Assembly (NCBI GenBank): GCA_946403755.1
Contig: CAMJBC010000006.1
Span: forward strand, 46,176-110,175
Length of the DNA stretch: 64,000 nucleotides
Source: an uncultured Mycoplasmatota bacterium
Lineage (GTDB): Bacteria; Bacillota_I; Bacilli_A; RF39; UBA660
Direction: 5' to 3'
This document shows positions 40,855 to 64,000 of this stretch, one piece after another. Under the pieces are notes generated by a model. It worked only from the letters and a program-made list of their open reading frames with translations. It was not told where the DNA came from and did no database searches. Made by a program: the position numbers and the translations under genes. How positions within the stretch are numbered: position 1 is the first letter of the stretch; each line of letters starts with the position of its first letter.

Positions 40855-40956
40855 AATTTGTACCTTTATTATGATAATATTATAACATAAAAATATTGAA
40901 ATAATTATTAAAAATTGATACAATTTATATATATAGAAAATAATGAGGTTTTTAGT

Positions 40957-43900
40957 ATGCATAAAAGAGTATTTAAAAAACTATTTTTAGTACTAATGAT
41001 AATAAGTTTATTATTATCAATTTTTAATGTTGGTAAAATATTAGCAGCAGAACCTACATTTAAATTATCTAATGTTAAGATAGAAGATAAGTCTAGTGGA
41101 GTAGAAACTTATATAGAAAGTTATACAGATAATAAATTAGTTACTGATACAACATTTCATAAATTAGATGATTATGTTAAATATAAATTAACTATTGAAA
41201 ATACATCTGATACTAAATATAAATTAGTACTAGTAGATGATAATAATTCAAATGATAATCTAACATATGAATATGATTACAATAAAGATGAAGAAATATT
41301 ACCAAGTAATTCAGTAGATGTTATTTTAACTATCACTTATAAAGATGGAATACAAGAAATTAATCAAAGAACTCAAGATCAAGAAGTTAAAATATCATTT
41401 ATAGTAGAAGATGAAGAAGGTAATACATACGAAGAAGAAATAACTAATAATCCTAAAACTAGTGATAATATTCTTATTTATATTATTTCAGCAATAGTAT
41501 CATTATTAGTGATATTAGCTATTGTATTTAGAAAGAAAATATCTAAGTTATTTGTATTATTAGTATTAATTATTCCAATGATAACTTATGCAGTTACACC
41601 AAGTTTAATAATAGTATTAAAAAATCAAACAAAGTTATTTGACAAAATGGTTGTATATACAAATGTAAATGGAGTAAATGAAACAGTATTAGTTGATTAT
41701 AATACTCCATATGAAAGACCAGAAAATCCACAAAAACCTGGTTATGATTTTGATAATTGGTATGTTGGTAATAAAGTATATAACTTTGATACACCACTTA
41801 CTGAAGATGTAGAATTAACTGCTAAGTTCAATTTAATAACTTATAACATTACATATGAATTAGATGGTGGCAATGTAAGTGGAAATCCAACAACTTATAA
41901 TGTAGAAACAGAAACATTTACATTAAATAATCCTACTAAAGATGGATATACATTTGTAGGATGGACTGGTTCAAATGGAAGCGAACCAAATGCCACTGTA
42001 ACAATAGAAAAAGGCAGTACAGAAGATAAAAATTATGTAGCTAACTTTGTAGCAAATGATGATACACCATATACAGTTAGACACAAATATAAAAGATTAG
42101 ATGGTACTTTTGATGTAGAAACAGAACATTTAGAAGGAAAAACTGATGATGTAGTAACACCAGCTATTAGACATAAATATGGATTTGTAGATCCAAGTAC
42201 AACACAAATTACAATAACAGCTGATGGAAATGCTTATGTTGAATATGAATATATAAGAGAACAATATGTATTAACTTTAGAAAATACTGAAGATATTAAT
42301 ACAACATTTACATCAGGATCATATGATTATGAAACTAAGATTACATTAACTGCTAAAGAAACAGAACATTATGATTTTGTAAAATGGTCTAATGATGAAA
42401 CAAATAATCCTTTAGTATTTAATATAACTGAAAATACTACAATTGGTCCAATATATCAAATAAAACAATATACAGTTTCATTTGATGAACAAGGTGGAAC
42501 AAGTGTAAATGATATAACAAAAGATTATAATTCTGAAATAGGTACATTACCAGAAACAACTAAAGATGGTTACTTATTTGATGGATGGTATACAAATGCA
42601 ACTGGTGGAGAAAAGATAACTAGTGATACTAAAATAATAGGAAATATAACATATTATGCACATTATACAAAGTCACTAGCATTAGCAACAATTTCACCAG
42701 AAAGTATAACTCTAACAAGAGGAGAAGGAACAACTATTACAGTAACAAATGTTGAAGAAGAATATGAATTTATTTCAGGTAACTCAAGTATTGTAACGGT
42801 TGATACTAATGGTAATGTTAGTTCACTTGCAAAAGGAACTACAACAATAACAGTTAGAGGAATAAGATCAACTATTGAAAAAACAATAAATGTGACAGTA
42901 AATCCAATAATGTATACAATAAATTATGATGCACAAGGTGGAACTAGTGTACAATCACAAGAAAAAGAAGAAAATGTTGCAATTGGAACTTTACCTAGTA
43001 CAACAAAAGATGATTATGTATTTGATGGTTGGTATACAAATGGAACTGGTGGAACTAAGATTGATGAAGATACTATAGTAGCTGGAGCAACAACATATTA
43101 TGCTCATTGGTTAAAATCAGTATCATTAGCAAATGTAACACCAGAAAGTATTACAATACGTAAAAAAGAAACAGCTAATATAACAGTAACAAATGTAGAA
43201 GAAGAATATACATTTACATCAAGTGATGAACAAGTAGCTACTGTTAATAGTAGTGGAGTAGTAACTGGTGCTTCTATAGGAACAACTACAATAGTAATAG
43301 AAGGAGTAAAATCTCATGCTACTAAAGAAGTTAATGTAACAGTAAATCCAATGATATGTACTGTAACATTTAATTCACTTGGTGGAGAAAGTATTGCTTC
43401 TAAGACTATAGAAGAAAATAATGTAGTTGGTACATTACCAATACCAGAAAAAGAAAATACTACATTTACAGGATGGTATACAGATACAAATTGGACTACA
43501 AGAATATATGCTGATACAGTAGTAACTGATGATGTAACATATTATGCTAGATATATAGAAGATAATATAAGTAAAGTATTCTTTATACCAGGATCTTGTA
43601 CATTTAATGGACATAAAACATTATCTCAAGTAGGAAATATTACTACTAATTCATCTAAAGGATGTATAAGTACAATTAACCCAAGTGGTAGTAACATTAA
43701 TTATTCAGATGTTAAATATATTGATACTCATATTGCATTATTTAGTAGTGATAACTATGGAAAAGATTTTGAATTAGGATTTACTATAGATGATTATGTA
43801 GCAGATAATACAGTTCATAATCAATCAACAATGGTAAACTCTAAATTAGAAAATGAAGCAGAAAACTATCCAGGATTTGTTGTTAGAAGAAAAGATGCCA

Positions 43901-45558
43901 ATAATGGTATCGAAGTAACAGAAAAATTTGGTAGTAGTACTGCAACTCAAAGAACACTAACTTATAAACCAGGAACTCAAATTAGAGTAGCTAGAATTGG
44001 TGGAAAAATGTACTATTCACAAGATGGTTCAAGTTGGAAATTACTACAAGATATAAATGATTATCCAGGTAGATTCAATCTAACTACTTGGTTTGGTGCT
44101 TTCTCTGATGAATCAGATATGACAAAAACTGGAGAAACTTCAAATGCTGATCGTTACTTTAAAGGAACACTTTCAAATATATATATAAAGATGACTGGTA
44201 TGGTAACACATGCAGTTACATTTGATGCTCATGGTGGAACACCATCATTTGGAAGTAAAAATGTTTTAGAAGGATCTGTAGTTGGAGAATTACCAACAGT
44301 AGAAAAACTAGGATTTATATTCTTGGGCTGGTTTACTGAAGCAGATGGTGGAACTCAAATAAATGAAAATACTGTAATCAATGGAACTGTTACTTTCCAT
44401 GCTCATTATATTGAATCTCATACAGTTACATTCAATGGTAATGGTGGAACACCATCATTTGCTACAAAAGAAGTAGGTCATGGACAAGCAGTTGGAGAAC
44501 TACCAACCGGAACATATGATGGATTTATATTAGATGGATGGTTTACAGATAATAGTTGGACAACACAAGTTAGTGAATCAACTGTTATAAATAATAATGA
44601 AACATTCATAGCTAAATGGAGACTTGCTAATGGAGTGGCTATGATAGGCGATGAAGAATATGGAAGTTTAGAAGCTGCAGTTGATGCTGTTCCAACTAAT
44701 GGAACTAAAACAACTATTAAAGTTCTTCAAGATATTACTTTAGCAGATAAAATAACAATACCATCTACTAAAAATATAGAATTAGATTTACAAAGTTATA
44801 CAATTGATATTTCAGCAAATCTAATGTTTGAAAATAACGGAACACTTCATATTAAAAATGGAACATTATTATCAAATGCTCCCGAACAAATTCCAAATAC
44901 TTCACCTGTTGCTCATGGAGTTGTAGTTTCTAATAAGAGAAATGCAACTTTAAATATTACTGGTGGTTTCTTACATTCAACATTAACTAATGTTATAGAA
45001 AACGCTGGTACAATAACAATGACTAATGGTAGATTAGAAGCAAATAGTAACTCTGCTGCTATTAATAATAACCAATATGGTGTATTAAATATATCAGGTG
45101 GTCAAATAATAGCTACAGGTACTACTAAAGGACAAGCTATATATAACGATAAAGGTACTACAACAATATCAGGTGATGTTTATATAGAAAATACATCACA
45201 ATCTAGTAGTGGTAGTGGTAGAGCAGCTGTTCATAATAATCAAGGAACAGTTACTATAAAAGGTGGAACAATTGTAAGTAAAAAGAATTCTGCTGTTAAA
45301 AATAATGCTACTATGATTATTGGTGATAATAGTAATCCGCTTGATATTACAACACCTTCATTCCAAGGAGATATATATGGTTTAGAACATGTTTCTGGTA
45401 AAACTACCACAGTATATGATGGTATATTTAAAGGAAAAACTGATAGTATTAATGATATTGGAAGTGTTATTCATAATGATAATGTAGATTTTAATACTTC
45501 AAATACAGAAACTATTGGTACTAATACTTATCATGTAGCTTATTTAGAAGAACAATAA
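40957..45558 (+). CDS. Large surface protein with InlB B-repeats, Big_2 Ig-like domains, lectin-like insert and C-terminal beta-helix
   Basis: Repeated V.FD..GG...LP...K.GY.F.GWYT units; SSDEQVATVNSSGVVTG; signal peptide; ATG 40957 after GAGG. Confidence 0.88.
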   Translation: MHKRVFKKLFLVLMIISLLLSIFNVGKILAAEPTFKLSNVKIEDKSSGVETYIESYTDNKLVTDTTFHKLDDYVKYKLTIENTSDTKYKLVLVDDNNSNDNLTYEYDYNKDEEILPSNSVDVILTITYKDGIQEINQRTQDQEVKISFIVEDEEGNTYEEEITNNPKTSDNILIYIISAIVSLLVILAIVFRKKISKLFVLLVLIIPMITYAVTPSLIIVLKNQTKLFDKMVVYTNVNGVNETVLVDYNTPYERPENPQKPGYDFDNWYVGNKVYNFDTPLTEDVELTAKFNLITYNITYELDGGNVSGNPTTYNVETETFTLNNPTKDGYTFVGWTGSNGSEPNATVTIEKGSTEDKNYVANFVANDDTPYTVRHKYKRLDGTFDVETEHLEGKTDDVVTPAIRHKYGFVDPSTTQITITADGNAYVEYEYIREQYVLTLENTEDINTTFTSGSYDYETKITLTAKETEHYDFVKWSNDETNNPLVFNITENTTIGPIYQIKQYTVSFDEQGGTSVNDITKDYNSEIGTLPETTKDGYLFDGWYTNATGGEKITSDTKIIGNITYYAHYTKSLALATISPESITLTRGEGTTITVTNVEEEYEFISGNSSIVTVDTNGNVSSLAKGTTTITVRGIRSTIEKTINVTVNPIMYTINYDAQGGTSVQSQEKEENVAIGTLPSTTKDDYVFDGWYTNGTGGTKIDEDTIVAGATTYYAHWLKSVSLANVTPESITIRKKETANITVTNVEEEYTFTSSDEQVATVNSSGVVTGASIGTTTIVIEGVKSHATKEVNVTVNPMICTVTFNSLGGESIASKTIEENNVVGTLPIPEKENTTFTGWYTDTNWTTRIYADTVVTDDVTYYARYIEDNISKVFFIPGSCTFNGHKTLSQVGNITTNSSKGCISTINPSGSNINYSDVKYIDTHIALFSSDNYGKDFELGFTIDDYVADNTVHNQSTMVNSKLENEAENYPGFVVRRKDANNGIEVTEKFGSSTATQRTLTYKPGTQIRVARIGGKMYYSQDGSSWKLLQDINDYPGRFNLTTWFGAFSDESDMTKTGETSNADRYFKGTLSNIYIKMTGMVTHAVTFDAHGGTPSFGSKNVLEGSVVGELPTVEKLGFIFLGWFTEADGGTQINENTVINGTVTFHAHYIESHTVTFNGNGGTPSFATKEVGHGQAVGELPTGTYDGFILDGWFTDNSWTTQVSESTVINNNETFIAKWRLANGVAMIGDEEYGSLEAAVDAVPTNGTKTTIKVLQDITLADKITIPSTKNIELDLQSYTIDISANLMFENNGTLHIKNGTLLSNAPEQIPNTSPVAHGVVVSNKRNATLNITGGFLHSTLTNVIENAGTITMTNGRLEANSNSAAINNNQYGVLNISGGQIIATGTTKGQAIYNDKGTTTISGDVYIENTSQSSSGSGRAAVHNNQGTVTIKGGTIVSKKNSAVKNNATMIIGDNSNPLDITTPSFQGDIYGLEHVSGKTTTVYDGIFKGKTDSINDIGSVIHNDNVDFNTSNTETIGTNTYHVAYLEEQ

Positions 45559-53412: not shown

Positions 53413-54012
53413 ATGGAACAAGAATTAAAAGAATTTATTAAATTTAAAAAGAATTATAAATTCAAACAATTAGATATTATAGAAAAAGATGGTAATTTAT
53501 ATTGTGAAGATACATTATTAAAAGATGAAAATGGATATGTAGGAGAAACAGATAAATGGGTAAATGTTGGTTTCTCATTAAGAGGTATGTATCCTAAACT
53601 ATTATCTAATTTATTTCCATATGAATTTACTTTTAAAAGCCATAAATTAAATTCAATAGAATGTTTCTTTCAAGGTATTAAATTTAAAGATAAAGATTTA
53701 CAAAAAAAATTATTTAAATATAGTGGTAAAGAGGCATTAGTATTACAAAAAGCTAGTAATTATAATTGGAAAGAAACAGGTATTATTTATTGGCAAGGAA
53801 AACCAATAAAAAGAGATTCTAAAGATTATGATAAACTAATAGATGAATTATATATAAGTGCTATACAAAATGAATTTTATAGAAATGCTATTAAAAACTG
53901 TAATTTACCTATAATACATGCAATGGGTGAAATAGATAAAAAAGATACAGTATTTACAAGATATGAATTTGAATTTATGTTAAATTGTTTACATGATTTT
54001 TTAAACAAATAA
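53413..54012 (+). CDS. NADAR-like protein (phage T4 gp30.3-like)
   Basis: LLSNLFPYEF...NSIECFFQGIKF...NWK....YWQG..I.R.S..Y. Confidence 0.7.
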   Translation: MEQELKEFIKFKKNYKFKQLDIIEKDGNLYCEDTLLKDENGYVGETDKWVNVGFSLRGMYPKLLSNLFPYEFTFKSHKLNSIECFFQGIKFKDKDLQKKLFKYSGKEALVLQKASNYNWKETGIIYWQGKPIKRDSKDYDKLIDELYISAIQNEFYRNAIKNCNLPIIHAMGEIDKKDTVFTRYEFEFMLNCLHDFLNK

Positions 54013-54107: not shown

Positions 54108-56837
54108 GTGTGTATTATGGCAAGAAAAAAAGAAGAAATGTATCCATGTTCTTATGACTTATTTATGAGGGCTTTAGAAGAATTAAAAGCACAAAGACCT
54201 GATAGTAAAGCAATAGAAGAACTATACTCTGTTTTAAGCATGATGGAAGACGATTGGGGAACTTTTGAAGAAAAAGAATTTATAGGAACTAAAAAACAAA
54301 TAAACAAGTATTTAAATGATAGTAAACCTCGTGCAAGAAAAGCATTCAGTAAATTAAGTAGAGAAGAACTTGTCACATTAGTAAATTATATTGAAAGAGA
54401 ATTTCAAAGAAGTTTTGATAGAAATAGAATAATAGATGAGTACATTGAAGAGTTAAGAAAGCATTGTAAAGAACCTAGTAAAACTAATGATTATGACTAT
54501 GATCACGGAATAGGTGATAGTTGGGGAGATGATGATTGGGGATTTACTAACCAAGATGGATTAGATTCAACATATGGTGATCCATTTGCACCATCTTCAA
54601 CATATGGAAATAGATCAAGAAGAAATAGACCAAGTATTTCAATATCAAACCCATTAGCAGGATTATCTGCTAATAGAAGACGTGAAAAATTGCCTTCATG
54701 TAGTTATAATAATTTTATGGAGGCTTTAGAAGAATTAAAAGCACAAAGACCTGATAGTAAAGCAATAGAAGAACTATTCTCTGTTTTAAGCATGAGGGAT
54801 GATAACGCTTGGGGACCTTCTAAAGAAAAAGAATTTATAGGAACTCAAAAACAAATAAACAAGTATTTAAATGATAGTAAACCTCGTGCAAGAAGAGCAT
54901 TCAGTAAATTAAGTAGAGAAGAACTTGGCGCATTAGTAAATTATATTGAAAGAGAATTTAAAAGAAGTTTTGATAGAAATCAAATAATAGATGAATATAT
55001 TGAAGAGTTAAGAAAACATTGTAAAGAACCTAGTAAAACTAATGATTATGATCACGGAATAGGTAATAGTTGGGGAGATGATGATTGGGGATTTACTAAC
55101 CAAGATGGATTAGATTCAACATATGATCCATTTGCACCATCTTCAACATATAGAAATAGTTCAAGAAGAAATAGACCAGGTATTTCAATGTCAAATCCAT
55201 TTGCTGCTAATAGAAGACGTGCAGAATTGCCTTTATGTACCTATAATCTTTTTATGGAAGCTTTAGAAGAATTAAAAAATCAAAGACCTGATAGTAAAGC
55301 AATAAGTAGTCTATATAATATTTTAAGTATGGAGTATAAAGATTTTACAGGAAGTAGAAATCAAATAAATAGTTTTATTAATCGTTGTACATCTGATGCA
55401 AGAAGACAATTTCATAAATTAAGTAGAGAAGAACTTGGAACATTAATTTATTCTATTGAAAGTAAATATAAAAGAAGATTTGATAAAGCAAAATTATTAA
55501 AAGAATATATTGAAGAGCTAAAGAAACATTGTAAAGAACTTACTGCAACTAATAATCATGGTTACAGAAGAAACAATAGTAGTGGAGATTACGATTATGA
55601 TCCTTTTGCACCAGATTCAACATATGAAGAAGAATCATATGATGCAGAGCAAACAAAAGTAACTCCTATAATTACTGGCAGAAGGCAACGTAGAAATTTG
55701 ATGCCATGTAACTATGATATATTTGAAGAAGCTGTAAAAGAATTAAAAGCACAAAGACCTGATAGTCCAGGAATATCTAATTTATATATCAGTTTAGGTG
55801 TTGAAGGAAGAGGACTTACAGGCAGCAGAAATCAAATTAATAGTTCAATTACTCGTATTATATCAAGTTTAAGAAGATCGTTAAATAAACTAAGTAGAGA
55901 AGAAATGGGAGCACTTGTTTCTATTCTTGAAAATAAGTATAACAAAAGACTTGATAAAGGCGTAATCATATATGATTTTGGTGATAGATTAAAAAAAGAA
56001 TATATTCAAAAAAGTATTAGTAGATCACATCCATCAGAAGAAGCACCAGCTTATGCTCATGGTTATTCATTAAGTACAGGAAGAAAATTTAAATCAGCTG
56101 GTCCAGCAGGTCAATTCATGGCTACAAGTAAAGAATATAATCCATATGCAGGTAAAGTAGCAAGACTATCAATACCAAAAGATTATAAATATAAATATTC
56201 ATATTATATGGTTCAGTCATATGGAGAAAGTGTTGTAAGATTTATTGATAGAACATTTAATAAACAAACATTGGAAAAATTTGATTCAGAATTAATAAAC
56301 ATAAGCCCATTTGATCCAAATTATATAACAGAGTCAAATAAATTAATCGAAGCAATTGTAGAAGATGCATTACTTTATGATACAGAAGAAGCTAAAAAGA
56401 AAATGATAGATGCTGTTAAAGATAATTATGGTTTAGAATTTTCTCCAAGTAAACTTCCAGAAGAAGTACTTAAGGAATTAATATCAGATGAATTAAGATT
56501 CTATCAACAAAAGATTATTGAGGAAAAATTAAACGGAATGGATACTACATTCTTAGGAACTTCAAAAAGAATATCAAAAGATATATGGCAAAATAGAATG
56601 GTACTCGAAGATTTACGTACATTTACATTACCTAATTATGCATTTACAGAAGAGGTTATAGATAATTATCCTATTGACATTGTAACTGCTAAAAAACAAT
56701 TACCAAGAGATTATGCAAGTAGATATTTAACTGGTGGATCTTTTGGAGAACAAACAGCACGAGTAATTATTACTAAAGGTTCAGATGGAACTTTTAGAGT
56801 ATCAAATGCATTTGGTAAAATTAAAATATTACAATAA
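54108..56837 (+). CDS. Hypothetical protein with four tandem ~180-aa repeats and unique C-terminal domain
   Basis: C.Y..F..A.EELK.QRPDS occurs four times; ATG 54117 is an alternative start. Confidence 0.85.
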   Translation: MCIMARKKEEMYPCSYDLFMRALEELKAQRPDSKAIEELYSVLSMMEDDWGTFEEKEFIGTKKQINKYLNDSKPRARKAFSKLSREELVTLVNYIEREFQRSFDRNRIIDEYIEELRKHCKEPSKTNDYDYDHGIGDSWGDDDWGFTNQDGLDSTYGDPFAPSSTYGNRSRRNRPSISISNPLAGLSANRRREKLPSCSYNNFMEALEELKAQRPDSKAIEELFSVLSMRDDNAWGPSKEKEFIGTQKQINKYLNDSKPRARRAFSKLSREELGALVNYIEREFKRSFDRNQIIDEYIEELRKHCKEPSKTNDYDHGIGNSWGDDDWGFTNQDGLDSTYDPFAPSSTYRNSSRRNRPGISMSNPFAANRRRAELPLCTYNLFMEALEELKNQRPDSKAISSLYNILSMEYKDFTGSRNQINSFINRCTSDARRQFHKLSREELGTLIYSIESKYKRRFDKAKLLKEYIEELKKHCKELTATNNHGYRRNNSSGDYDYDPFAPDSTYEEESYDAEQTKVTPIITGRRQRRNLMPCNYDIFEEAVKELKAQRPDSPGISNLYISLGVEGRGLTGSRNQINSSITRIISSLRRSLNKLSREEMGALVSILENKYNKRLDKGVIIYDFGDRLKKEYIQKSISRSHPSEEAPAYAHGYSLSTGRKFKSAGPAGQFMATSKEYNPYAGKVARLSIPKDYKYKYSYYMVQSYGESVVRFIDRTFNKQTLEKFDSELINISPFDPNYITESNKLIEAIVEDALLYDTEEAKKKMIDAVKDNYGLEFSPSKLPEEVLKELISDELRFYQQKIIEEKLNGMDTTFLGTSKRISKDIWQNRMVLEDLRTFTLPNYAFTEEVIDNYPIDIVTAKKQLPRDYASRYLTGGSFGEQTARVIITKGSDGTFRVSNAFGKIKILQ
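54140..56000 (+). repeat. Four intragenic repeats (~0.5 kb period), first two nearly identical at DNA level
   Basis: GAATTAAAAGCACAAAGACCTGATAGT and AAATTAAGTAGAGAAGAA recur; boundaries approximate. Confidence 0.9.
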
Positions 56838-56918: not shown

Positions 56919-57578
56919 GTGAACAATTTGAAGAAAAAAATATTAATAATTTTATTTGTTTTAGTTCTACTATGTGGTTGTGGTAAAACTGGAAGTGGAA
57001 GGAAAGTTACAGCTATAGATAGTGATATAGATTATATATCTATAAGAGACTATAAAATATATTTGACAGAAAATTTTGAAGATTATGTTTTACAATTTCA
57101 AGGTTTAGGTTGTAAATTTCAAGCACAAGATAGTAATATAAAAGATTCATTTGAAATAGACAATATTAAATCAAAAGATCATCCATTTTATACATTAACA
57201 GGAGGATATAGATTTGATATATCATGTCCAATAGCTGGAAATGTATCATCAGCTGATTTTGATGGATATTTAGAACAAACAAGTGCTAATTATACTGATA
57301 GAGTTATTAAAAGATGGCGTATTGATTCTTTACAAGAAGTAATAAAAGTTAAAACAAAAAATCATGGAACACTAATATTTGGTGATGATGATAATCATGA
57401 AACAATTGATAGTATAAGACAAAAGTATGGAGAACCTACAGAAGAAGAAAAAGATTATTATGGAAAAATAGAATCTATGAATTATAAAAGTGATAATAAT
57501 GATTTAGAATTCATAGTAATGAATAGTCTTACTTCAACAGGTGATGAAGTATATGGCTTCTATTTAGAAAGGAAATAA
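56919..57578 (+). CDS. Lipoprotein
   Basis: Lipobox LCGC; YGEP motif. Confidence 0.8.
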   Translation: MNNLKKKILIILFVLVLLCGCGKTGSGRKVTAIDSDIDYISIRDYKIYLTENFEDYVLQFQGLGCKFQAQDSNIKDSFEIDNIKSKDHPFYTLTGGYRFDISCPIAGNVSSADFDGYLEQTSANYTDRVIKRWRIDSLQEVIKVKTKNHGTLIFGDDDNHETIDSIRQKYGEPTEEEKDYYGKIESMNYKSDNNDLEFIVMNSLTSTGDEVYGFYLERK

Positions 57579-57581
57579 AAA

Positions 57582-58553
57582 ATGAAAAAGAAAATATCAC
57601 TAATAGTTTATTTATTATTTGCAGTATTAATAGTAGGTTTTTGTTCAGGATGTGCTTCAAAACAAAGTGATGGAGAAGGCAATACTGAAGTAGTAAAAGG
57701 AAGTAACATAATTCAAACATATGTATCTAGTAATTATATATTAATGCTTGATAAAAAAGGTGATTTATATCTATATGGAAAATATACTTATGGAATATCA
57801 AATCTAGAAGAACCAAAAGTAGTAGCAAGTGATGTAAAATACTTTGTACCAAGTGGTAGATTAATAATTGTTAAAAATGATGATTCAGCATATTATAGTG
57901 GATTAAATATTGATGGTTGGGGATCAGCTTCAGAATTTGAAAAAGTAACAGATAATGTAAAATCAATAACATCAAATACATTTTGTTTCTTTATAATTGA
58001 TAAAGATAATAACTATGTAGTAAGAGGGCCAATAAAAAATAGCAATTCTATGAAATATTGTGCATTACCAGATACATTTGATGCAAATTTCTCTAAAGTA
58101 GCTACTAATGTAAAAGGTATAGAAAGTAGTGATTTTTCAAATGGGTATGTTAATGAAAATAATGAATTATATGTATCTATTTATAATAAACCAGAATATA
58201 AAATGCTTTTATCTGATGTAAAGAAAGTATCAGGAACAATGGTATTAACTAATAGTAATAAACTATATTGGATAGATAATTTCTCAGCAGAAGTAGTTAA
58301 ATTATTAGATGAAAATGTTATAGAATTGTATGACATTGGTATTTATAAAAAAGCAGATAATACATTCCATTCAGGTGCATATTCTACAGAACCTATTAAA
58401 TATACAGATATAAAAATACCATATTATTATAATGGTAAAAAAACAGTATATTTAAGTACAAATAATAAATTAGTACTAGCAGGTGAAGTTGATAAATATG
58501 AATTAGATTTATCAGTTGAATCTATGAAAAAAGCATATGAATTTTTACAATAA
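57582..58553 (+). CDS. Lipoprotein with RCC1-like beta-propeller repeats
   Basis: Lipobox CSGC; LDKKGDLYLYG and KV..NVK.I repeats. Confidence 0.72.
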   Translation: MKKKISLIVYLLFAVLIVGFCSGCASKQSDGEGNTEVVKGSNIIQTYVSSNYILMLDKKGDLYLYGKYTYGISNLEEPKVVASDVKYFVPSGRLIIVKNDDSAYYSGLNIDGWGSASEFEKVTDNVKSITSNTFCFFIIDKDNNYVVRGPIKNSNSMKYCALPDTFDANFSKVATNVKGIESSDFSNGYVNENNELYVSIYNKPEYKMLLSDVKKVSGTMVLTNSNKLYWIDNFSAEVVKLLDENVIELYDIGIYKKADNTFHSGAYSTEPIKYTDIKIPYYYNGKKTVYLSTNNKLVLAGEVDKYELDLSVESMKKAYEFLQ

Positions 58554-58687: not shown

Positions 58688-60418
58688 ATGAAAAAAACAT
58701 TTAAAATGATTTTTTGCATGTTTTTGTGTGTCTTTTCATTATTTATAAAAAATGATAAAGTATATGCTTATTTTTCAGATTCATATGTTGCATCTAATGG
58801 TTTTTCAGTTGCACCTACATATACTGATACTTTTATAACAAATTATAGTGATTCTAATGGAGTAATAACTGAACTTGGAAGAGAAACAAAAAAATATTTT
58901 GAAAATACAGTTGTTACTATTAATAGTCCAAGTAATGTTAATTTAACAGGATTAGAACTTGATTCAATTACAGTAAATGGAAGTGGATCATATAATATTG
59001 GTGATACATTTACTCAATTAGCAAGTAATATGACTATAGTATATACATATAAAGATATAAAATACTCCGTTACATATGGTGGAGAAACATCAAATTATAC
59101 TTATAGTAATACAAATTTAAATGTTAATTATAATAATGGTTATACTACAACAATAACTCCAGTAACAGGAAGAAATATTGATACTATTACAGTAACAATG
59201 GGTGGTGTTGATATTACATCATCAGCTGTTAATAATAACAGTGTTACAGTAAATAATGTAACTGGAGATATAGATATAAATGTAACCACTAAAGCTGTAA
59301 CATATACAATAACTTATTCTGGAAATAATTTCACACACTCTAATAATGCAACAACAGTTAATCATGGAGATTCATTTACTACAAATATATCAGCATCAGG
59401 AGTAAATCAAGTTACTGGTATTACAGTAACAATGGGTGGTGTTGATATTTCATCATCAGCAGTTAATAATAATAGTGTTACAATAAATAGTGTAACTGGA
59501 AATATTAGAATTACTGTTACAACTCAAACATGTTTAGTAGAAGGAACAAGAATAACTTTATATGATGGTTCTACTAAAAATATTGAAGATATTAGATATA
59601 ATGATTTATTAAAAGTATGGAATCACGATTTAGGACAATATGGTTATGAATATGCTGGATGGGTTGAACAACAAGGAACTGCAAATGGTTATACTAAGGT
59701 GACATTCTCAGATGGAACAATACTAAAGGTAGTAGGTGGACATAGTTTATTTAGTAAAAGATTAAATAAGTATGTTGATATTACATCAGGTGAATTAAGT
59801 ATTGGCGATGAAGTAGTAACGCTAAGTAATGGTATAGGATATGTAAGTATTACAAATATAGAAACAGTTAATGAAGAGGTTAAATACTATCATGTAATAT
59901 CTACAAGATACTTTAACTTAATTGCTAACAATATACTAACAACTTATGAAATATTTGATAATATTTCTAACTTTATGGATTTTGGTGAAAATCTAAAATG
60001 GCAAAATACTGAAATAGTAAGAAGTGATATGTATACATATGATGATTTTACTTATTTACCAAGATATATTTATAAAGCATTTAGATTAGAAGAAACAAAA
60101 TATTTAGTAAATAGTGGATTAGTTTCACCAGATGAGTTTACTTATCTATTCACTCAATATTTAACTGATGGAAATAAAATGTTAATGCCACCAACTAATA
60201 ATAATGAAACTAGATTATGGATGGTAACAACTAGTGATGATACAGATTTATCTAATACTACTCATCAATTAGAAGAAGGAACAATTTATACAGTACCAAC
60301 TCCTAATAATGAAGAAGGATTTGTTAATTGGTATAATTCAAGTGATAATAAGTATTATAATCCAGGTGATACAATTGAAGTTTACGGTGGAATGCATTTA
60401 ACTGCTGTATATGAATAA
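58688..60418 (+). CDS. Secreted protein with SipW-type signal, Ig-like repeats and Hint domain
   Basis: AYFSD after signal; two TITVTMGGVDI.SSAVNNNSVT repeats; CLVEGTRITLYDGSTKNIEDI...GGHSLF...LIANNILT. Confidence 0.85.
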   Translation: MKKTFKMIFCMFLCVFSLFIKNDKVYAYFSDSYVASNGFSVAPTYTDTFITNYSDSNGVITELGRETKKYFENTVVTINSPSNVNLTGLELDSITVNGSGSYNIGDTFTQLASNMTIVYTYKDIKYSVTYGGETSNYTYSNTNLNVNYNNGYTTTITPVTGRNIDTITVTMGGVDITSSAVNNNSVTVNNVTGDIDINVTTKAVTYTITYSGNNFTHSNNATTVNHGDSFTTNISASGVNQVTGITVTMGGVDISSSAVNNNSVTINSVTGNIRITVTTQTCLVEGTRITLYDGSTKNIEDIRYNDLLKVWNHDLGQYGYEYAGWVEQQGTANGYTKVTFSDGTILKVVGGHSLFSKRLNKYVDITSGELSIGDEVVTLSNGIGYVSITNIETVNEEVKYYHVISTRYFNLIANNILTTYEIFDNISNFMDFGENLKWQNTEIVRSDMYTYDDFTYLPRYIYKAFRLEETKYLVNSGLVSPDEFTYLFTQYLTDGNKMLMPPTNNNETRLWMVTTSDDTDLSNTTHQLEEGTIYTVPTPNNEEGFVNWYNSSDNKYYNPGDTIEVYGGMHLTAVYE

Positions 60419-60499
60419 AGCGTAATTTTACGCTTTATTTTTTTGTTGTAATAGATAAAATCAAAATGATATAATAAATACATATTAGGATGTGATTAT

Positions 60500-61618
60500 A
60501 TGAAAAAAATCAAATATATAATTCTAATTATTTTTTTATTAATATTATCGACTGTTTCAGGTATATATGCTTATCAAAGCTATGAAATTGCAATAGTTGA
60601 AAACAATATAGTATCAGGAGCAGTTAATATTGAATTAAAAGAATATCTTAAAGATAAAAATGATATAGAAGTAGAAATAGATTCATTAAATAAAAAAGTT
60701 TTACCTAGTGAAAGTATACCATTTATAGTTAAAGTATATAATAGAGGTATTAGTTCTTATTTAAGAATTAAATATGAATATAATAATGGAACATTTTATG
60801 ATAGTGATATTAATATGGATGAAACAAATTGGGTAAAAAAAGGAGATTATTACTATTATAAAAATATATTAGAAGAAAGTAGTTATGTAGAATTATTTAA
60901 TAAATATACAACTCCATCTGATATATTAGGAACTTATGATTTTATAATTACAGCAGAAGCTGTTCAAGCTGAATATTTTACTGTAGATTTTGAATCTAAT
61001 ACACCTTGGGGTGATTTTGTAGTAGAAGATGCTATTGATGATAATTATGATATATCTACAATAAGCGTTTCAAATAATACAATAGTAGATTATAAAGATG
61101 ATGGAGATAACTATTTAGAAATACCTCAAAACTTTATGCAAAAAATATATTTATTAAGACCTGGTGATAAAATATCAGACTATATAACAGTAAATAATAT
61201 ATCAGATAAACAAATAGAAATATTTATGAAAAATGTTAATTTATCACCACAATTAAATGAAAATTATAAATATTTAACTTTAAAAGTATATGATGAAAAA
61301 AATAATGTTGTTTATGATGGAAAAGTATTACAAGAAGCATTAACATCATTAGGTAGATATGAACCAGGATCTTCAAATAAGTTAACATTTGAAGTAGAAT
61401 TTTTAAAAGAAAATGAAAATATTACATCAATAAAAGATTATAAAATTGGTTGGAAATATTATTTAAGTGAAATAGAAGAAGAACCAAGCATTATAGATAT
61501 TATTAATCCTAAAACAGGTGATGGAATATTTATATGGGTTGCTATTTTTATAGCATCATTATGTATGCTAATAGTAACAATAAAAAGATTATATATATTG
61601 ATGAAAAAAGTTGATTAA
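60500..61618 (+). CDS. SipW-cognate (TasA/camelysin-like) protein with C-terminal NPKTG sorting signal
   Basis: IYAY..., GAVNIELKE, V.N.G..SYLR, YYYY, AEAVQ; NPKTGD-TM-basic tail. Confidence 0.78.
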   Translation: MKKIKYIILIIFLLILSTVSGIYAYQSYEIAIVENNIVSGAVNIELKEYLKDKNDIEVEIDSLNKKVLPSESIPFIVKVYNRGISSYLRIKYEYNNGTFYDSDINMDETNWVKKGDYYYYKNILEESSYVELFNKYTTPSDILGTYDFIITAEAVQAEYFTVDFESNTPWGDFVVEDAIDDNYDISTISVSNNTIVDYKDDGDNYLEIPQNFMQKIYLLRPGDKISDYITVNNISDKQIEIFMKNVNLSPQLNENYKYLTLKVYDEKNNVVYDGKVLQEALTSLGRYEPGSSNKLTFEVEFLKENENITSIKDYKIGWKYYLSEIEEEPSIIDIINPKTGDGIFIWVAIFIASLCMLIVTIKRLYILMKKVD

Positions 61619-61667
61619 ATTTAAATAATATAGTATTATTAATGTATAAGATATGGAGGATGATATA

Positions 61668-62333
61668 ATGAATAAGAAGAAAGTATTAATAGCTGCATTT
61701 GTTTTAGCTTTAGTATTATCAATTGGAGGAGTTTTAGCTTATTTCTCAGACTCAGATACTAAAACAAATACATTTACAGTAGGACAAGTAAGAATATCTC
61801 TTAATGAAACAGCTTGGGATACAACTGGTCAAACAGCCGCTGGATCAGTCTTACCAAATCAAATGATTGATAAGGATCCAACTATTAGTAATACTGGTAA
61901 TAATGCAGCATATGTATTTATTAAAGTATCAATTCCAAAAACAACAGTTATAGTAGAAGCAGATAATGGAACAGGTAGTACTAGTAGTTCTCAAGAATTA
62001 TTTACTTTAATTAATTCTTCAGATCAACCTGGGGTTAACTCTGGATGGCAATTAGTTAGTTCAGATACTACAGGTGCTAATACAAATGAATATATATATT
62101 CATATTCTACTGGTGGAACAATGACTTCACTTGCTAAAAATGCTTCAACTAATCCATTATTTAATAAAATTCAATTTGCTAATGCACAAGAAGGATGGGG
62201 AATTGAAGGACAACATTATGATGTAGTAGTAACTGGATATGCAATTCAAACAGAAAATTTAACTACTGGTAATGTTACTGGTAATACAGCAGTATGGAAT
62301 GTATTAAATGCTAATGCAATACATAAACAATAA
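61668..62333 (+). CDS. SipW-dependent TasA/camelysin-like filament subunit
   Basis: GGVLAYFSDSDTKTNTFTVGQV.I.L.E, KDPTI.NTG...AYVF, YAIQ; GGAGG RBS. Confidence 0.85.
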   Translation: MNKKKVLIAAFVLALVLSIGGVLAYFSDSDTKTNTFTVGQVRISLNETAWDTTGQTAAGSVLPNQMIDKDPTISNTGNNAAYVFIKVSIPKTTVIVEADNGTGSTSSSQELFTLINSSDQPGVNSGWQLVSSDTTGANTNEYIYSYSTGGTMTSLAKNASTNPLFNKIQFANAQEGWGIEGQHYDVVVTGYAIQTENLTTGNVTGNTAVWNVLNANAIHKQ

Positions 62334-62364
62334 TTAATTAAGATTTAGAAAGAAGACAAAGACT

Positions 62365-62904
62365 ATGAAAATAATTATTAATATAATAGCAAAAATAATA
62401 GATATTCTATTAACATTAATAATTGTAATTGGATTAGCCTTTGCTTTTTTATTTATAATTAAAATTGAACCATATGTAGTTTTATCAGGTTCAATGGAAC
62501 CAAATCTTCATGTTGGTAGTTTAAGTTTTATAAATAAGCATTATAAATATGAAGATGTTAAAAAAGATGATATTATAGCATTTAAAACAGATACAGGAGT
62601 ATTAGTAGCGCATAGAGTTTATAAAATAGAAAATAATGAGTTTGTAACAAAAGGTGATGCTAACGAACAAGAAGATGTATCAAATGTTACTAAACTAAAT
62701 TATATTGGTAAAAATATTTTTAATATACCAAAAGCAGGTTATGCAATTAGATGGATTCAAACAAAAAAAGGCAAAATTATATCAGGAACCTTAATAGTTT
62801 GTTTAATAGTATCTGCATTTTTCTTTAGTGATGATAATGATAAAAAGAAAAAAACAAAGCATAAAAAGAAAGAAGAATCATCAAACGATATAAAAGAGGA
62901 ATAA
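62365..62904 (+). CDS. sipW: Signal peptidase I, ER/SipW type (S26B)
   Basis: VLSGSMEP, HRV, TKGDAN..D; next to cognate substrates. Confidence 0.9.
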   Translation: MKIIINIIAKIIDILLTLIIVIGLAFAFLFIIKIEPYVVLSGSMEPNLHVGSLSFINKHYKYEDVKKDDIIAFKTDTGVLVAHRVYKIENNEFVTKGDANEQEDVSNVTKLNYIGKNIFNIPKAGYAIRWIQTKKGKIISGTLIVCLIVSAFFFSDDNDKKKKTKHKKKEESSNDIKEE

Positions 62905-62995
62905 AAAAATTAGTTGAAAAATAAAATGTAGGTAAACCTACATTTTTTAATTATAGTTTTATATGTTATAATATATTTAGTATAGGAGAATATTT

Positions 62996-64000
62996 ATGAA
63001 TAAAAAAGTTATTTTAATTGTAATTTCTATAATAGTTTTTGTTATTGCTGGATTAGCTTTAGCATTTCACATTCATAACAATAAAGGAGAAAATGAAAAA
63101 ATATATCATAATGTAGAATTTGAAATGGATGATGGAACATTAATTCAAAGTCTAAAAGTATTACATGGTAATAAAGTAAATAAACCAAATGATCCATACA
63201 AAGAAAACTATATATTTAAAGGCTGGTTTTATAATGGAGAAGAATATAATTTTGATTTACCAATTTCTAATGATTTAAAAATAGTGGCGACTTGGGAAAT
63301 TAATATAGAGGATACTAATGAAACAGAAGAAGTTAAAAAATACAAGGTAGTATTTGATAGTGATAATGGTTCACCAGTTTCTACTATAGAAGTAAACGAA
63401 GGAGAAAAAGTAAGTGCTCCAAAAAATCCAACAAAAAAAGATTATATTTTTGTAGAATGGCAATTAAATGGTAAAAAATATAATTTTGATACTCCTATAA
63501 CAAGCGATATAGAATTAAAGGCAAAATGGAATAATTCAACAAATAATGAAGAGATAATATATACAGTAACATTTAATAGTAATGGAGGTACTGAAGTACC
63601 TTCTCAGAAAGTTAAAAAAGGAGAAAAAGTAGTTGCTCCTCAAGACCCAACAAGAAAAGGTTTCAAATTTGGTGGATGGAAGTACAAAACAAAGAATTAT
63701 AATTTTGATGATCCAGTTACTTCGGATATCCAATTAGATGCTATATGGAATCCTGATACTTCTGAAAAAACATATTTAGTTTCATTTAATACAAATGGTG
63801 GAGGTACTATTAATTCTCAAACAGTTAAAGAAGGATCAACAGCAACAGAACCAAAAACACCTCCTAAAAAGGATGGATATATATTTGCTGAATGGCAATT
63901 AAATAGCCAAAAATATAATTTTAGTACGCCTGTTAATAGTGACATTGAATTATATGCAAAATGGTATAAGATTGATTATAGTATAAAATATAAAGGAGAA
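62996..64000 (+). CDS. Membrane-anchored InlB B-repeat protein (3'-truncated by window edge; missing from ORF track)
   Basis: AGGAG RBS; my translation MNKKVILIVISIIVFVIAG... then four units like YTVTFNSNGG...P.DPTRKGFKFGGW...YNFD.PVTSDI.L.A.W. Confidence 0.9.
   Translation, partial: MNKKVILIVISIIVFVIAGLALAFHIHNNKGENEKIYHNVEFEMDDGTLIQSLKVLHGNKVNKPNDPYKENYIFKGWFYNGEEYNFDLPISNDLKIVATWEINIEDTNETEEVKKYKVVFDSDNGSPVSTIEVNEGEKVSAPKNPTKKDYIFVEWQLNGKKYNFDTPITSDIELKAKWNNSTNNEEIIYTVTFNSNGGTEVPSQKVKKGEKVVAPQDPTRKGFKFGGWKYKTKNYNFDDPVTSDIQLDAIWNPDTSEKTYLVSFNTNGGGTINSQTVKEGSTATEPKTPPKKDGYIFAEWQLNSQKYNFSTPVNSDIELYAKWYKIDYSIKYKGE

Follow-up and report, generated by a model that had tools for sequence, protein, structure and literature searches.

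A candidate SipW-dependent surface fibre locus with a Hint-tailed accessory protein in an uncultured Mycoplasmatota bacterium

Introduction

Fibres of the TasA type, whose subunits are joined by donated strands, are a main scaffold of bacterial and archaeal biofilms, and the accessory proteins that tip, initiate, and anchor them are only now being catalogued. Here, we analyse a locus of four genes found in a 64,000-nucleotide stretch of DNA (hereafter, the window) from an uncultured Mycoplasmatota bacterium (assembly GCA_946403755.1, contig CAMJBC010000006.1, positions 46,176 to 110,175 of the forward strand), which encodes a protein with a Hint domain, a protein with an NPKTG sorting motif, a TasA-like protein, and a SipW-type signal peptidase. 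As described in two sources (PMC11821415; preprint 10.64898/2026.01.04.697558), the accessory set of the TasA superfamily comprises a dedicated type I signal peptidase (SPase I) with many transmembrane (TM) segments, DUF5305 proteins, tip proteins, and anchors that include LPXTG proteins. In these fibres, the first donor strand comes from TapA or TafC, and anchoring falls to TafF (PMC11821415); loci of the AbpX type contain LPXTG anchors and tip proteins (10.64898/2026.01.04.697558).

The locus resembles tapA-sipW-tasA of Bacillus subtilis and its CalY/BsaA relatives in that a dedicated SipW-type peptidase gene adjoins those of its substrates, in that the presumed shaft subunit combines a TIGR04088 leader with a camelysin/TasA domain, and in that an accessory protein would give an N-terminal strand, as TapA does (PMC11821415). 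Unlike that system, the window contains a TasA-like protein that would serve as a sortase-anchored base subunit, and its accessory protein ends in a cassette made of a Hint domain and a conserved tail. Scores fell under the NCBIfam cut-offs for SipW (NF046067, 83.5 bits against 190), TasA (NF046066, 19.5 against 450), and BsaA (TIGR04090, 36.6 against 60); thus, the window genes are not orthologues of B. subtilis SipW/TasA or of C. perfringens BsaA. The tafi and AbpX loci also have a dedicated SPase I, and in their fibres donor strands link a tip or initiator, a shaft, and an anchor, the arrangement that we propose for the window; LPXTG anchors and sortases occur in the bacterial loci, and the tip proteins are structurally varied. 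In contrast to them, the window has the short SipW type of peptidase with two TM segments and no DUF5305 gene, the AbpX-like layout (a polytopic SPase I fusion plus DUF5305) being found instead at a second locus of the same genome, on contig C12, and in the related loci L007-L011.

An earlier reading of this DNA from its letters and ORFs alone (the first-pass annotation) had proposed a three-component fibre of anchor, shaft, and tip as a system not known to have been described. The tip-shaft-anchor layout is not new, since tafi (PMC11821415) and those AbpX loci that contain LPXTG anchors (10.64898/2026.01.04.697558) already show it. What may be new is the Hint cassette on fibre subunits, to which the window adds a version of the locus with a canonical TIGR04088 leader and an NPXTG anchor. 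No Hint cassette on TasA-type/SipW or donor-strand subunits was found in the literature searched, a result on which the supplements of the AbpX preprint may bear: neither "Intein" nor "Hint" appears in the main text of that preprint (10.64898/2026.01.04.697558), and its tip proteins are shown in the supplements, outside this scope. What was found there on bacterial intein-like domains together with pilins concerned Neisseria toxins only.

The Hint domain of the window may also be compared with families that bear such domains outside fibres. Bacterial intein-like (BIL) domains of type B and the Hint domains of Hedgehog/Hog proteins have neither a C-terminal Asn nor a +1 nucleophile and carry out only N-terminal cleavage or transfer, and Hog proteins contain an extra region after the Hint domain. 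The window protein is like them in that its Hint domain lies in a secreted protein and possesses the first cysteine (Cys1) and the block-B His, with no C-terminal Asn or +1 nucleophile; it is unlike them in that the domain is joined to an undescribed tail of 150 amino acids (aa) and in that the cassette ends fibre subunits with SipW-type, AbpX-type, or type IV pilin N-termini. We know of no sterol or adduct for Hint cassettes of the window type. The PT-HINT domains of polymorphic toxins (PMC3482391) also lie near the C-terminus of long secreted repeat proteins, but the C-terminal region of the window family is constant and no immunity-like neighbour is found.

With moderate confidence, we read the locus as encoding a surface fibre that belongs to the TasA superfamily, depends on SipW, and assembles through donor strands, with the Hint protein as a strand-only, self-processing end subunit. 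A self-processing Hint cassette, if this is true, would add a chemical step after secretion (cleavage or transfer) to fibre assembly. Among uncultured Bacilli of the gut and rumen whose genomes measure ~1 Mb, the cassette is found behind fibre N-termini of three different kinds.

Results and discussion

A signal peptidase gene adjoins those of three candidate substrates

The genome containing the window amounts to 1.19 Mb in 13 contigs (88.6% complete), and the window DNA is low in GC (22-30%). Three adjacent secreted proteins followed by sipW had been noted in the first-pass annotation, and indeed four consecutive open reading frames (ORFs) occupy the + strand at 58.7-62.9 kb:

58688..60418, + strand: gene of the Hint-tailed accessory protein, 576 aa from an ATG at 58688 backed by a ribosome-binding site
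From 58667, + strand: the same ORF at its full open length, giving 583 aa
60500..61618, + strand: gene of the NPKTG-anchored TasA-like protein, 372 aa
61505-61519, + strand: NPKTG sorting motif of that protein, in a C-terminus reading ...INPKTGDGIF, a hydrophobic stretch, and KRLYILMKKVD
61668..62333, + strand: gene of the camelysin/TasA-like subunit, presumed shaft, 221 aa
62365..62904, + strand: gene of a SipW-type (archaeal/ER-type) signal peptidase I, 179 aa

An AGGAG located 9 nt upstream of 58688 favours that start for the Hint gene; residue numbers given for the Hint protein are those of the 583-aa ORF. Likewise, the TasA-like ORF is open from 61653 (226 aa), and a GGAGG before 61668 favours the start that gives 221 aa. 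The mature N-termini are ...KVYA followed by YFSDSYVASNGFSVAP in the Hint protein, ...SGIYA followed by YQSYEIAIVENNIVSGAVNIEL in the NPKTG protein, and ...GGVLA followed by YFSDSDTKTNTFTVG in the TasA-like subunit. Common to the three substrates is a hydrophobic leader ending in Ala, then Y-(F/Q)-S and, 7-11 residues further on, N-x-(F/I). A relaxed form of this leader motif, built post hoc from the same three proteins, matched 3 of the 1132 ORFs of at least 100 aa in the whole genome, exactly these three genes.

The signal peptidase, whose gene adjoins those of its substrates, scored 92.7 bits on TIGR02228 (cut-off 51.85). The 221-aa protein, which had been singled out as looking like a major subunit, passed both TIGR04088 (E 2.3e-10, 40.3 bits, cut-off 19) and PF12389 (E 1.5e-7, 31.9 bits, cut-off 22.5), in agreement with that claim. 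Among its 68 retrieved homologues, 2 carry the NCBI name SipW-dependent-type signal peptide-containing protein, and the JGI names of 2 refer to peptides with a SipW-like signal; a sequence search against solved structures gave chance-level matches only.

The TasA-like family aligned with residues 2-180 of the NPKTG family (hhalign 98%, E 1.6e-13). Behind its leader (...SGIYA), the NPKTG protein thus has a TasA-like domain at about residues 25-175 and then a second domain, and it ends in a sorting signal where NPKTG precedes hydrophobic residues and a basic tail. Of 23 relatives, 22 retain NPxTGD together with the hydrophobic and basic parts, and N336, P337, T339, G340, and D341 vary little or not at all. 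Three sortase genes of the genome scored over the PF04203 cut-off. These results support the wall anchor claimed for this protein. The dedicated anchor models were weak on the family (TIGR01167 matched 3 and NF033846 matched 2 of the 23 members at E<=1), and a sequence search of the family against solved structures found nothing.

The Hint protein starts with a TasA-type leader and strand

Homologues of the Hint protein numbered 835 at E<=0.001. Its features are distributed along the gene as follows:

58688..58768, + strand: signal peptide ending in ...KVYA (residues 8-34), in the region covered by the hhalign alignment to the TasA-like family
58769..58819, + strand: predicted donor strand YFSDSYVASNGFSVAPT (residues 35-51), in the interface of the complex model
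59039..59530, + strand: two tandem beta-rich repeats of ~80 aa (residues 125-208 and 209-288), detected by BLASTP
59531..59956, + strand: Hint domain (residues 289-430), with Cys289 in the block A motif CLVEGT, His359 in block B, and the end ...ANNILTTYE
59957..60415, + strand: conserved post-Hint tail (residues 431-583), ~150 aa, always found with this Hint clade

The SipW-type start attributed to this protein in the first-pass annotation was recovered at the family level, where the Hint family aligned with the TasA-like family (hhalign 90.9%, E 1.1e-6) over the first 73 columns only, which comprise the leader and the AYFSD..N.F strand. Cleavage of the signal peptide probably takes place after Ala34, a placement for which we take the known cleavage of TasA as the basis. 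In 18 relatives, position 44 is always N and position 34 almost always A, with F/T-like residues after N44. Beyond leader and strand, profile comparison detected no TasA-like domain in the Hint protein; about 75 residues separate the strand from the first repeat. The internal repeats that had been claimed are real, residues 125-208 and 209-288 being 54% identical (BLASTP, E 8e-23), and they had no match in Pfam.

Strand donation, which had been put forward as a matter for structural modelling, was addressed with one controlled complex model, in which residues 25-221 of the presumed shaft, its mature form, were paired with residues 35-130 of the Hint protein, both partners being supplied with an alignment. 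The best of the three runs scored 0.82 (0.80, 0.82, and 0.82), as opposed to 0.01 for the best of 3 controls; of 157 solved complexes, 116 attain the pass mark, as do 2 of 215 mismatched pairs, counts that hold only roughly here because the analysis used its own alignments. The runs agreed in at least 93% of contacts, with a predicted local distance difference test (pLDDT) value of at least 91 for the partner. The modelled interface involves Hint residues 35-51 and 75-81, and residues 43-49 were placed between shaft residues 58-62 and 181-187, in the geometry of a donated strand. This placement is a model rather than a measurement and speaks for likeness rather than binding, and the pass may partly reflect the memory of the model, since TasA-type fibres have already been solved.

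The ~80-aa repeat of residues 125-288 is also present, in 3-8 copies, in many proteins that bear no signal peptide (P0092-P0120 and others), which form part of 3063 matches at E<=0.001; some of their N-termini resemble phage tail-fibre proteins.

Conserved residues point to N-terminal chemistry in the Hint domain

The Hint domain is clear at the family level, as PF14890 matched 17 and PF01079 matched 11 of the 18 relatives (E<=0.1) and TIGR01445 matched 14 (E<=1); the domain claimed in the first-pass annotation stands on this basis, the window protein itself being below threshold. Cys1 (C289) and the block-B His (H359) are invariant in 132 of 132 aligned relatives, whose identity falls to about 30%. 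The residues typical of the C-terminal end of inteins are not conserved. The penultimate-His position is occupied by T in 114 and by H in 0 of the 132 sequences, the terminal-Asn position by D in 81, Y in 39, and N in 1, and the +1 position by G in 46 and E in 44; the window protein has Tyr-Glu at the terminal-Asn and following positions. Because the C-terminal His-Asn and a +1 nucleophile are absent, splicing and Asn-driven C-terminal cleavage are excluded for the window protein, and the chemistry that would remain, judging from these residues, is an N-to-S acyl shift at the bond between residues 288 and 289, followed by hydrolysis or transfer.

The best solved relative of the Hint domain by sequence is 6y75/6tmm (E 1.4e-4, whole domain covered), a 153-aa chain to which its depositors gave the name NAD(P)(+)--arginine ADP-ribosyltransferase. 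The 6y75 alignment fixes the C-terminal register, with ...FFANGVLAH in the chain facing ...IANNILTT in the Hint family; unlike the chain, which ends there in ...FFANGVLAH, the window family has TT[Y/D].

Most relatives of the second N-terminus class described below (class 2) have Asp at the terminal-Asn position (81/132), often followed by Gly, and this Asp(-Gly) might allow a slow C-terminal cleavage in those proteins.

The post-Hint tail had no match in Pfam or NCBIfam, and it is conserved to the last residue in 12 loci, to the same degree as the Hint domain. Full cassettes were present in 172 of the 252 retrieved proteins, and in 166 of these 172 the cassette ends no more than 15 aa from the C-terminus. 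In the ESM Atlas, both the whole Hint protein and residues 431-583 gave only matches below 0.9 to a Flg_new cluster (0.84 and 0.81), which are leads only. A likeness of the last 60 residues to Flg_new was discarded, since Pfam gave nothing and a local hhalign comparison with two repeats of the neighbouring protein reached E 0.016 and a probability of 2.8%.

The constancy of the tail bears on what the cassette could do. In a Hedgehog-like scheme, the tail would pick a wall or target amine or hydroxyl to attack the thioester, so that the fibre-bound N-terminal fragment would be ligated instead of simply released. The combination of a Hint domain that has no C-terminal Asn with an obligate, conserved extra region reproduces the layout of Hog proteins, and class-2 cassette loci show no protein with a sortase signal among their four genes. 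Nevertheless, such an adduct is purely hypothetical, no recognisable binding fold was found in the tail (Pfam, NCBIfam, and the ESM Atlas look-up), the window already has an anchor of the sortase type, and the same residues are explained by plain hydrolysis, all of which makes this scheme decidedly unlikely. We are equally doubtful of its more specific form, in which the cassette would be a ligation module, the tail binding a wall or target nucleophile that attacks the thioester and fixes the C-terminus of the fibre fragment covalently. If true, it would represent a sortase-independent, Hedgehog-like way of anchoring or gluing subunits of the TasA, AbpX, and type IV pilin types; and should a specific acceptor receive the thioester, the cassette would represent a small, naturally occurring ligation tag.

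Alternatively, the fibre-type N-terminus and the repeats could deliver the 150-aa tail as an effector released by the Hint domain, as in polymorphic toxins, where HINT immediately precedes a toxin domain at the C-terminus and sets it free (PMC3482391). The name given to 6y75/6tmm by its depositors fits this view. However, the tail is constant across the family and as conserved as the Hint domain, the genes downstream vary between loci with no conserved small gene among them, and C-terminal release normally needs the C-terminal Asn found in a single one of 132 sequences. Together with the lack of a conserved immunity-like neighbour, these points speak against a toxin-like release, which we regard as highly improbable.

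The cassette is linked to SipW-type genes

The closest related loci come from metagenome-assembled genomes of uncultured Tenericutes, Erysipelotrichaceae, Bacilli, and Mollicutes. In tblastn searches with the window proteins, all four genes were found in the same order as in the window in three loci (L001-L003). The order in L004 is NPKTG-TasA-SipW-Hint, and in L005 the SipW and Hint genes are adjacent at the start of a contig.

To survey the co-occurrence of Hint and SipW, which had been suggested as a check, the flanks of all 19 other full-length cassette matches and the second copy of this same genome were added to the earlier loci. After the removal of duplicates (L053, L054, and L055, identical to L004, L007, and L012, respectively) and with four short matches (L014-L017) left out, 30 non-window loci remained, in which the near-identical L008 and L009 count as two. 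A SipW-type ORF was present on the fetched stretch in 22 of the 30, mostly within 0.1-3.5 kb, as called with a custom hidden Markov model (HMM) at E<=1e-5, some seeds of which were taken from these same loci. With the window SipW alone as the query, a SipW-type gene was found in 10 of the first 13 loci. The background is low: 5 SipW-type genes exceeded the cut-off in the 1.19-Mb genome and 47 did so in ten relatives (about 11 Mb), from which about 0.09 genes per 20-kb stretch are expected by chance. Thus, the homologues of the Hint protein are linked to SipW-type genes, as the reading in the first-pass annotation requires.

SipW-type signal peptidase genes number 3-8 per ~1-Mb genome in this genome and the ten relatives, an uncommonly large complement of dedicated fibre peptidases for genomes of that size.

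N-termini of fibre type precede the cassette in at least 138 of the 172 proteins with a full cassette, which are distributed as follows:

Class 2, G[YF][AS]: 94 of 172
AY..N.F type: 39 of 172
Type IV pilin: 5 of 172
Other, hydrophobic (some of AY type by eye; some lipoprotein or ordinary signals): 19 of 172
Other, with no hydrophobic start: 8 of 172
Truncated: 7 of 172

Most relatives of the Hint protein are about 780 aa long and have N-termini of the form ...G(Y/F)A.Y...L.L.G. Their genes belong to a four-gene set, which encodes a small subunit with the same N-terminus, a fusion of a SipW-type peptidase to a polytopic membrane domain, a DUF5305 protein, and the Hint protein. A second cassette locus, AbpX-like and also of SipW type, is found in the genome of the window itself (contig C12:11218-16442, L072, outside the window). 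Its genes encode a subunit of 191 aa, a protein of 383 aa in which a SipW-type peptidase is joined to a polytopic membrane domain, a protein of 353 aa, and a Hint protein of 806 aa, whose cassette shares 39% identity with that of the window; the 353-aa gene occupies the position of DUF5305 in the loci of relatives, an assignment made by position alone.

In L012 (2145-3806) and L013 (7344-9017), the cassette lies behind a type IV pilin N-terminus (KKGFTLIELLAV; TIGR02532, PF07963).

Candidate transcription signals divide the locus in the window

Three candidate signals were detected in and around the four genes:

60413..60450, + strand: terminator-like hairpin with a 12-bp stem and a T run, placed by a scan at 60413-60440, where it overlaps the Hint stop codon
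60446..60475, + strand: promoter-like site upstream of the NPKTG gene, TTGTAA-18-TATAAT with TG, a consensus match only
62923-62946, + strand: terminator-like hairpin closing the unit after sipW, from the same scan

The scan found 4 terminator-like sites, compared with 0.5 expected. The first hairpin and TGATATAAT are kept in L001. They are kept as well in L002 (positions 2534-2639, compared with 60405-60499 of the window), where the stem has a different sequence with compensated changes. In L003 there is no hairpin, and the Hint and NPKTG genes abut. The first-pass annotation had taken a terminator after the Hint gene as a sign of separate transcription, which agrees with the window, L001, and L002 and fails in L003; since L003 has no hairpin, separate transcription is not a fixed trait of this type of locus. 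For the window, these signals make separate transcription of the Hint gene likely. Among the 19 sequencing runs listed as containing part of the stretch, none is an RNA run.

Proposed assembly

In the assembly that we favour, the signal peptidase encoded at 62365-62904 would cut the three leaders after the conserved Ala, and the 221-aa camelysin/TasA-like protein would polymerise as the shaft. The 372-aa NPKTG protein, since it has a TasA-like domain of its own, could take the last strand of the shaft in its groove, and a sortase of the genome would join its NPKTG signal to the wall, making it the base of the fibre. In contrast to these two, the Hint protein could only donate a strand, because leader and strand are present and a TasA-like domain is undetectable; being strand-only, it would be located at the groove end of the fibre, where it may act as a nucleator like TapA or TafC or as a distal tip that carries two beta-rich repeat domains. 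Cys289 and His359 would then make a thioester at the bond between residues 288 and 289 by an N-to-S acyl shift, to be resolved by water or by another nucleophile, and this cleavage or transfer at residue 288 would part the fibre-bound N-terminal repeats from the Hint-plus-tail cassette. The order of the subunits, the cleavage, and the role of the tail are what we infer from the features described above. The three-component fibre with Hint self-processing imagined in the first-pass annotation is thus supported as a whole by the leader and strand, their docking in the model, the linkage, the anchor, and the invariant Cys1 and His, and the roles and the self-cleavage keep the standing of proposals.

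Apart from the limits of the docking model, several results weigh against this assembly. TIGR04088, which had been suggested as a check on the three ORFs and which the 221-aa protein passed, had no match on the 60-aa N-termini of the Hint and NPKTG proteins even at E<=10, nor did it match any of 18 Hint-family or 23 NPKTG-family members at E<=1. The Hint domain of the window scored E 6e-4 and 20 bits on PF14890, under the gathering score of 35.8, and E 0.0096 on Hint_2, and remained below the gathering score of every Pfam Hint model. The block-B Thr of canonical Hint domains is mostly replaced (V in 74, A in 17, I in 16, and T in 4 of 132). A profile of the cassette found it in 23 of 401 genomes of the order, belonging to 19 of 145 genera, and neither of the 2 further genomes in the genus of this bacterium gave a match. 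No SipW-type gene was found nearby in 8 of the 30 loci (L006, L012, L013, L060, L061, L064, L067, and L070), of which L061 and L064 are cut by contig ends and L012 and L013 have the type IV pilin N-termini (TIGR02532). Moreover, 27 of the 172 cassette proteins have other N-termini, and the cassette is therefore not strictly bound to fibres. Finally, the Hint gene has its own terminator-like hairpin, with a promoter-like site after it.

The replaced Thr and the scores below threshold on all Hint models would be compatible with a Hint domain that has lost catalysis and acts solely in structure or binding. Nevertheless, Cys1 and the block-B His have been kept without exception while identity has fallen to about 30%, and catalysis is hard to do without when these two residues are invariant at such a divergence; a dead domain is consequently very unlikely.

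Other results in this list suggest that the Hint protein could be a free-standing secreted adhesin or surface protein that borrows the SipW-type peptidase, in which case the fibre would consist of the shaft and NPKTG proteins alone. This would account for the separate hairpin and promoter-like site, for the undetectable TasA-like domain beyond leader and strand, for the lack of a TIGR04088 match, for cassettes placed behind ordinary signal peptides and lipoprotein signals, and for the four loci (L006, L060, L067, and L070) that have no SipW-type gene nearby. However, the strand motif has been kept in the mature N-terminus, with N44 invariant, and the model places it in the groove of the shaft with controls at 0.01. 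In addition, the Hint gene stays with the other three even where their order is shuffled (L004), and proteins that provide only a strand, such as TapA and TafC, are known accessories within fibres of this kind (PMC11821415). On balance, a free-standing adhesin appears unlikely, and a strand-only end subunit of the fibre continues to be the explanation that we favour.

Neighbouring genes of the window

Two lipoprotein genes upstream (56919-58553) and the Flg_new protein downstream (62996 onward) were considered as members of the locus and rejected, as neither is kept beside the cluster in L001-L004. The latter is a surface protein of 509 aa encoded directly after sipW (62996-64000, + strand, continuing to C6:110700), and another Flg_new (Listeria-Bacteroides repeat) surface protein, of 1547 aa, is encoded at 40915-45558 (+ strand). 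The ORF at 54108-56837 (+ strand) encodes a protein of 909 aa that contains four internal repeats of roughly 110-190 aa each (...C.Y..F..A.EELK.QRPDSKAI...KLSREE...), has no signal peptide, and belongs to no credible Pfam or NCBIfam family. Just upstream, at 53413-54012 (+ strand), a protein of 199 aa that contains a Phage_30_3 domain (PF08010, E 7.6e-28) is encoded in a stretch that is otherwise chromosomal-looking.

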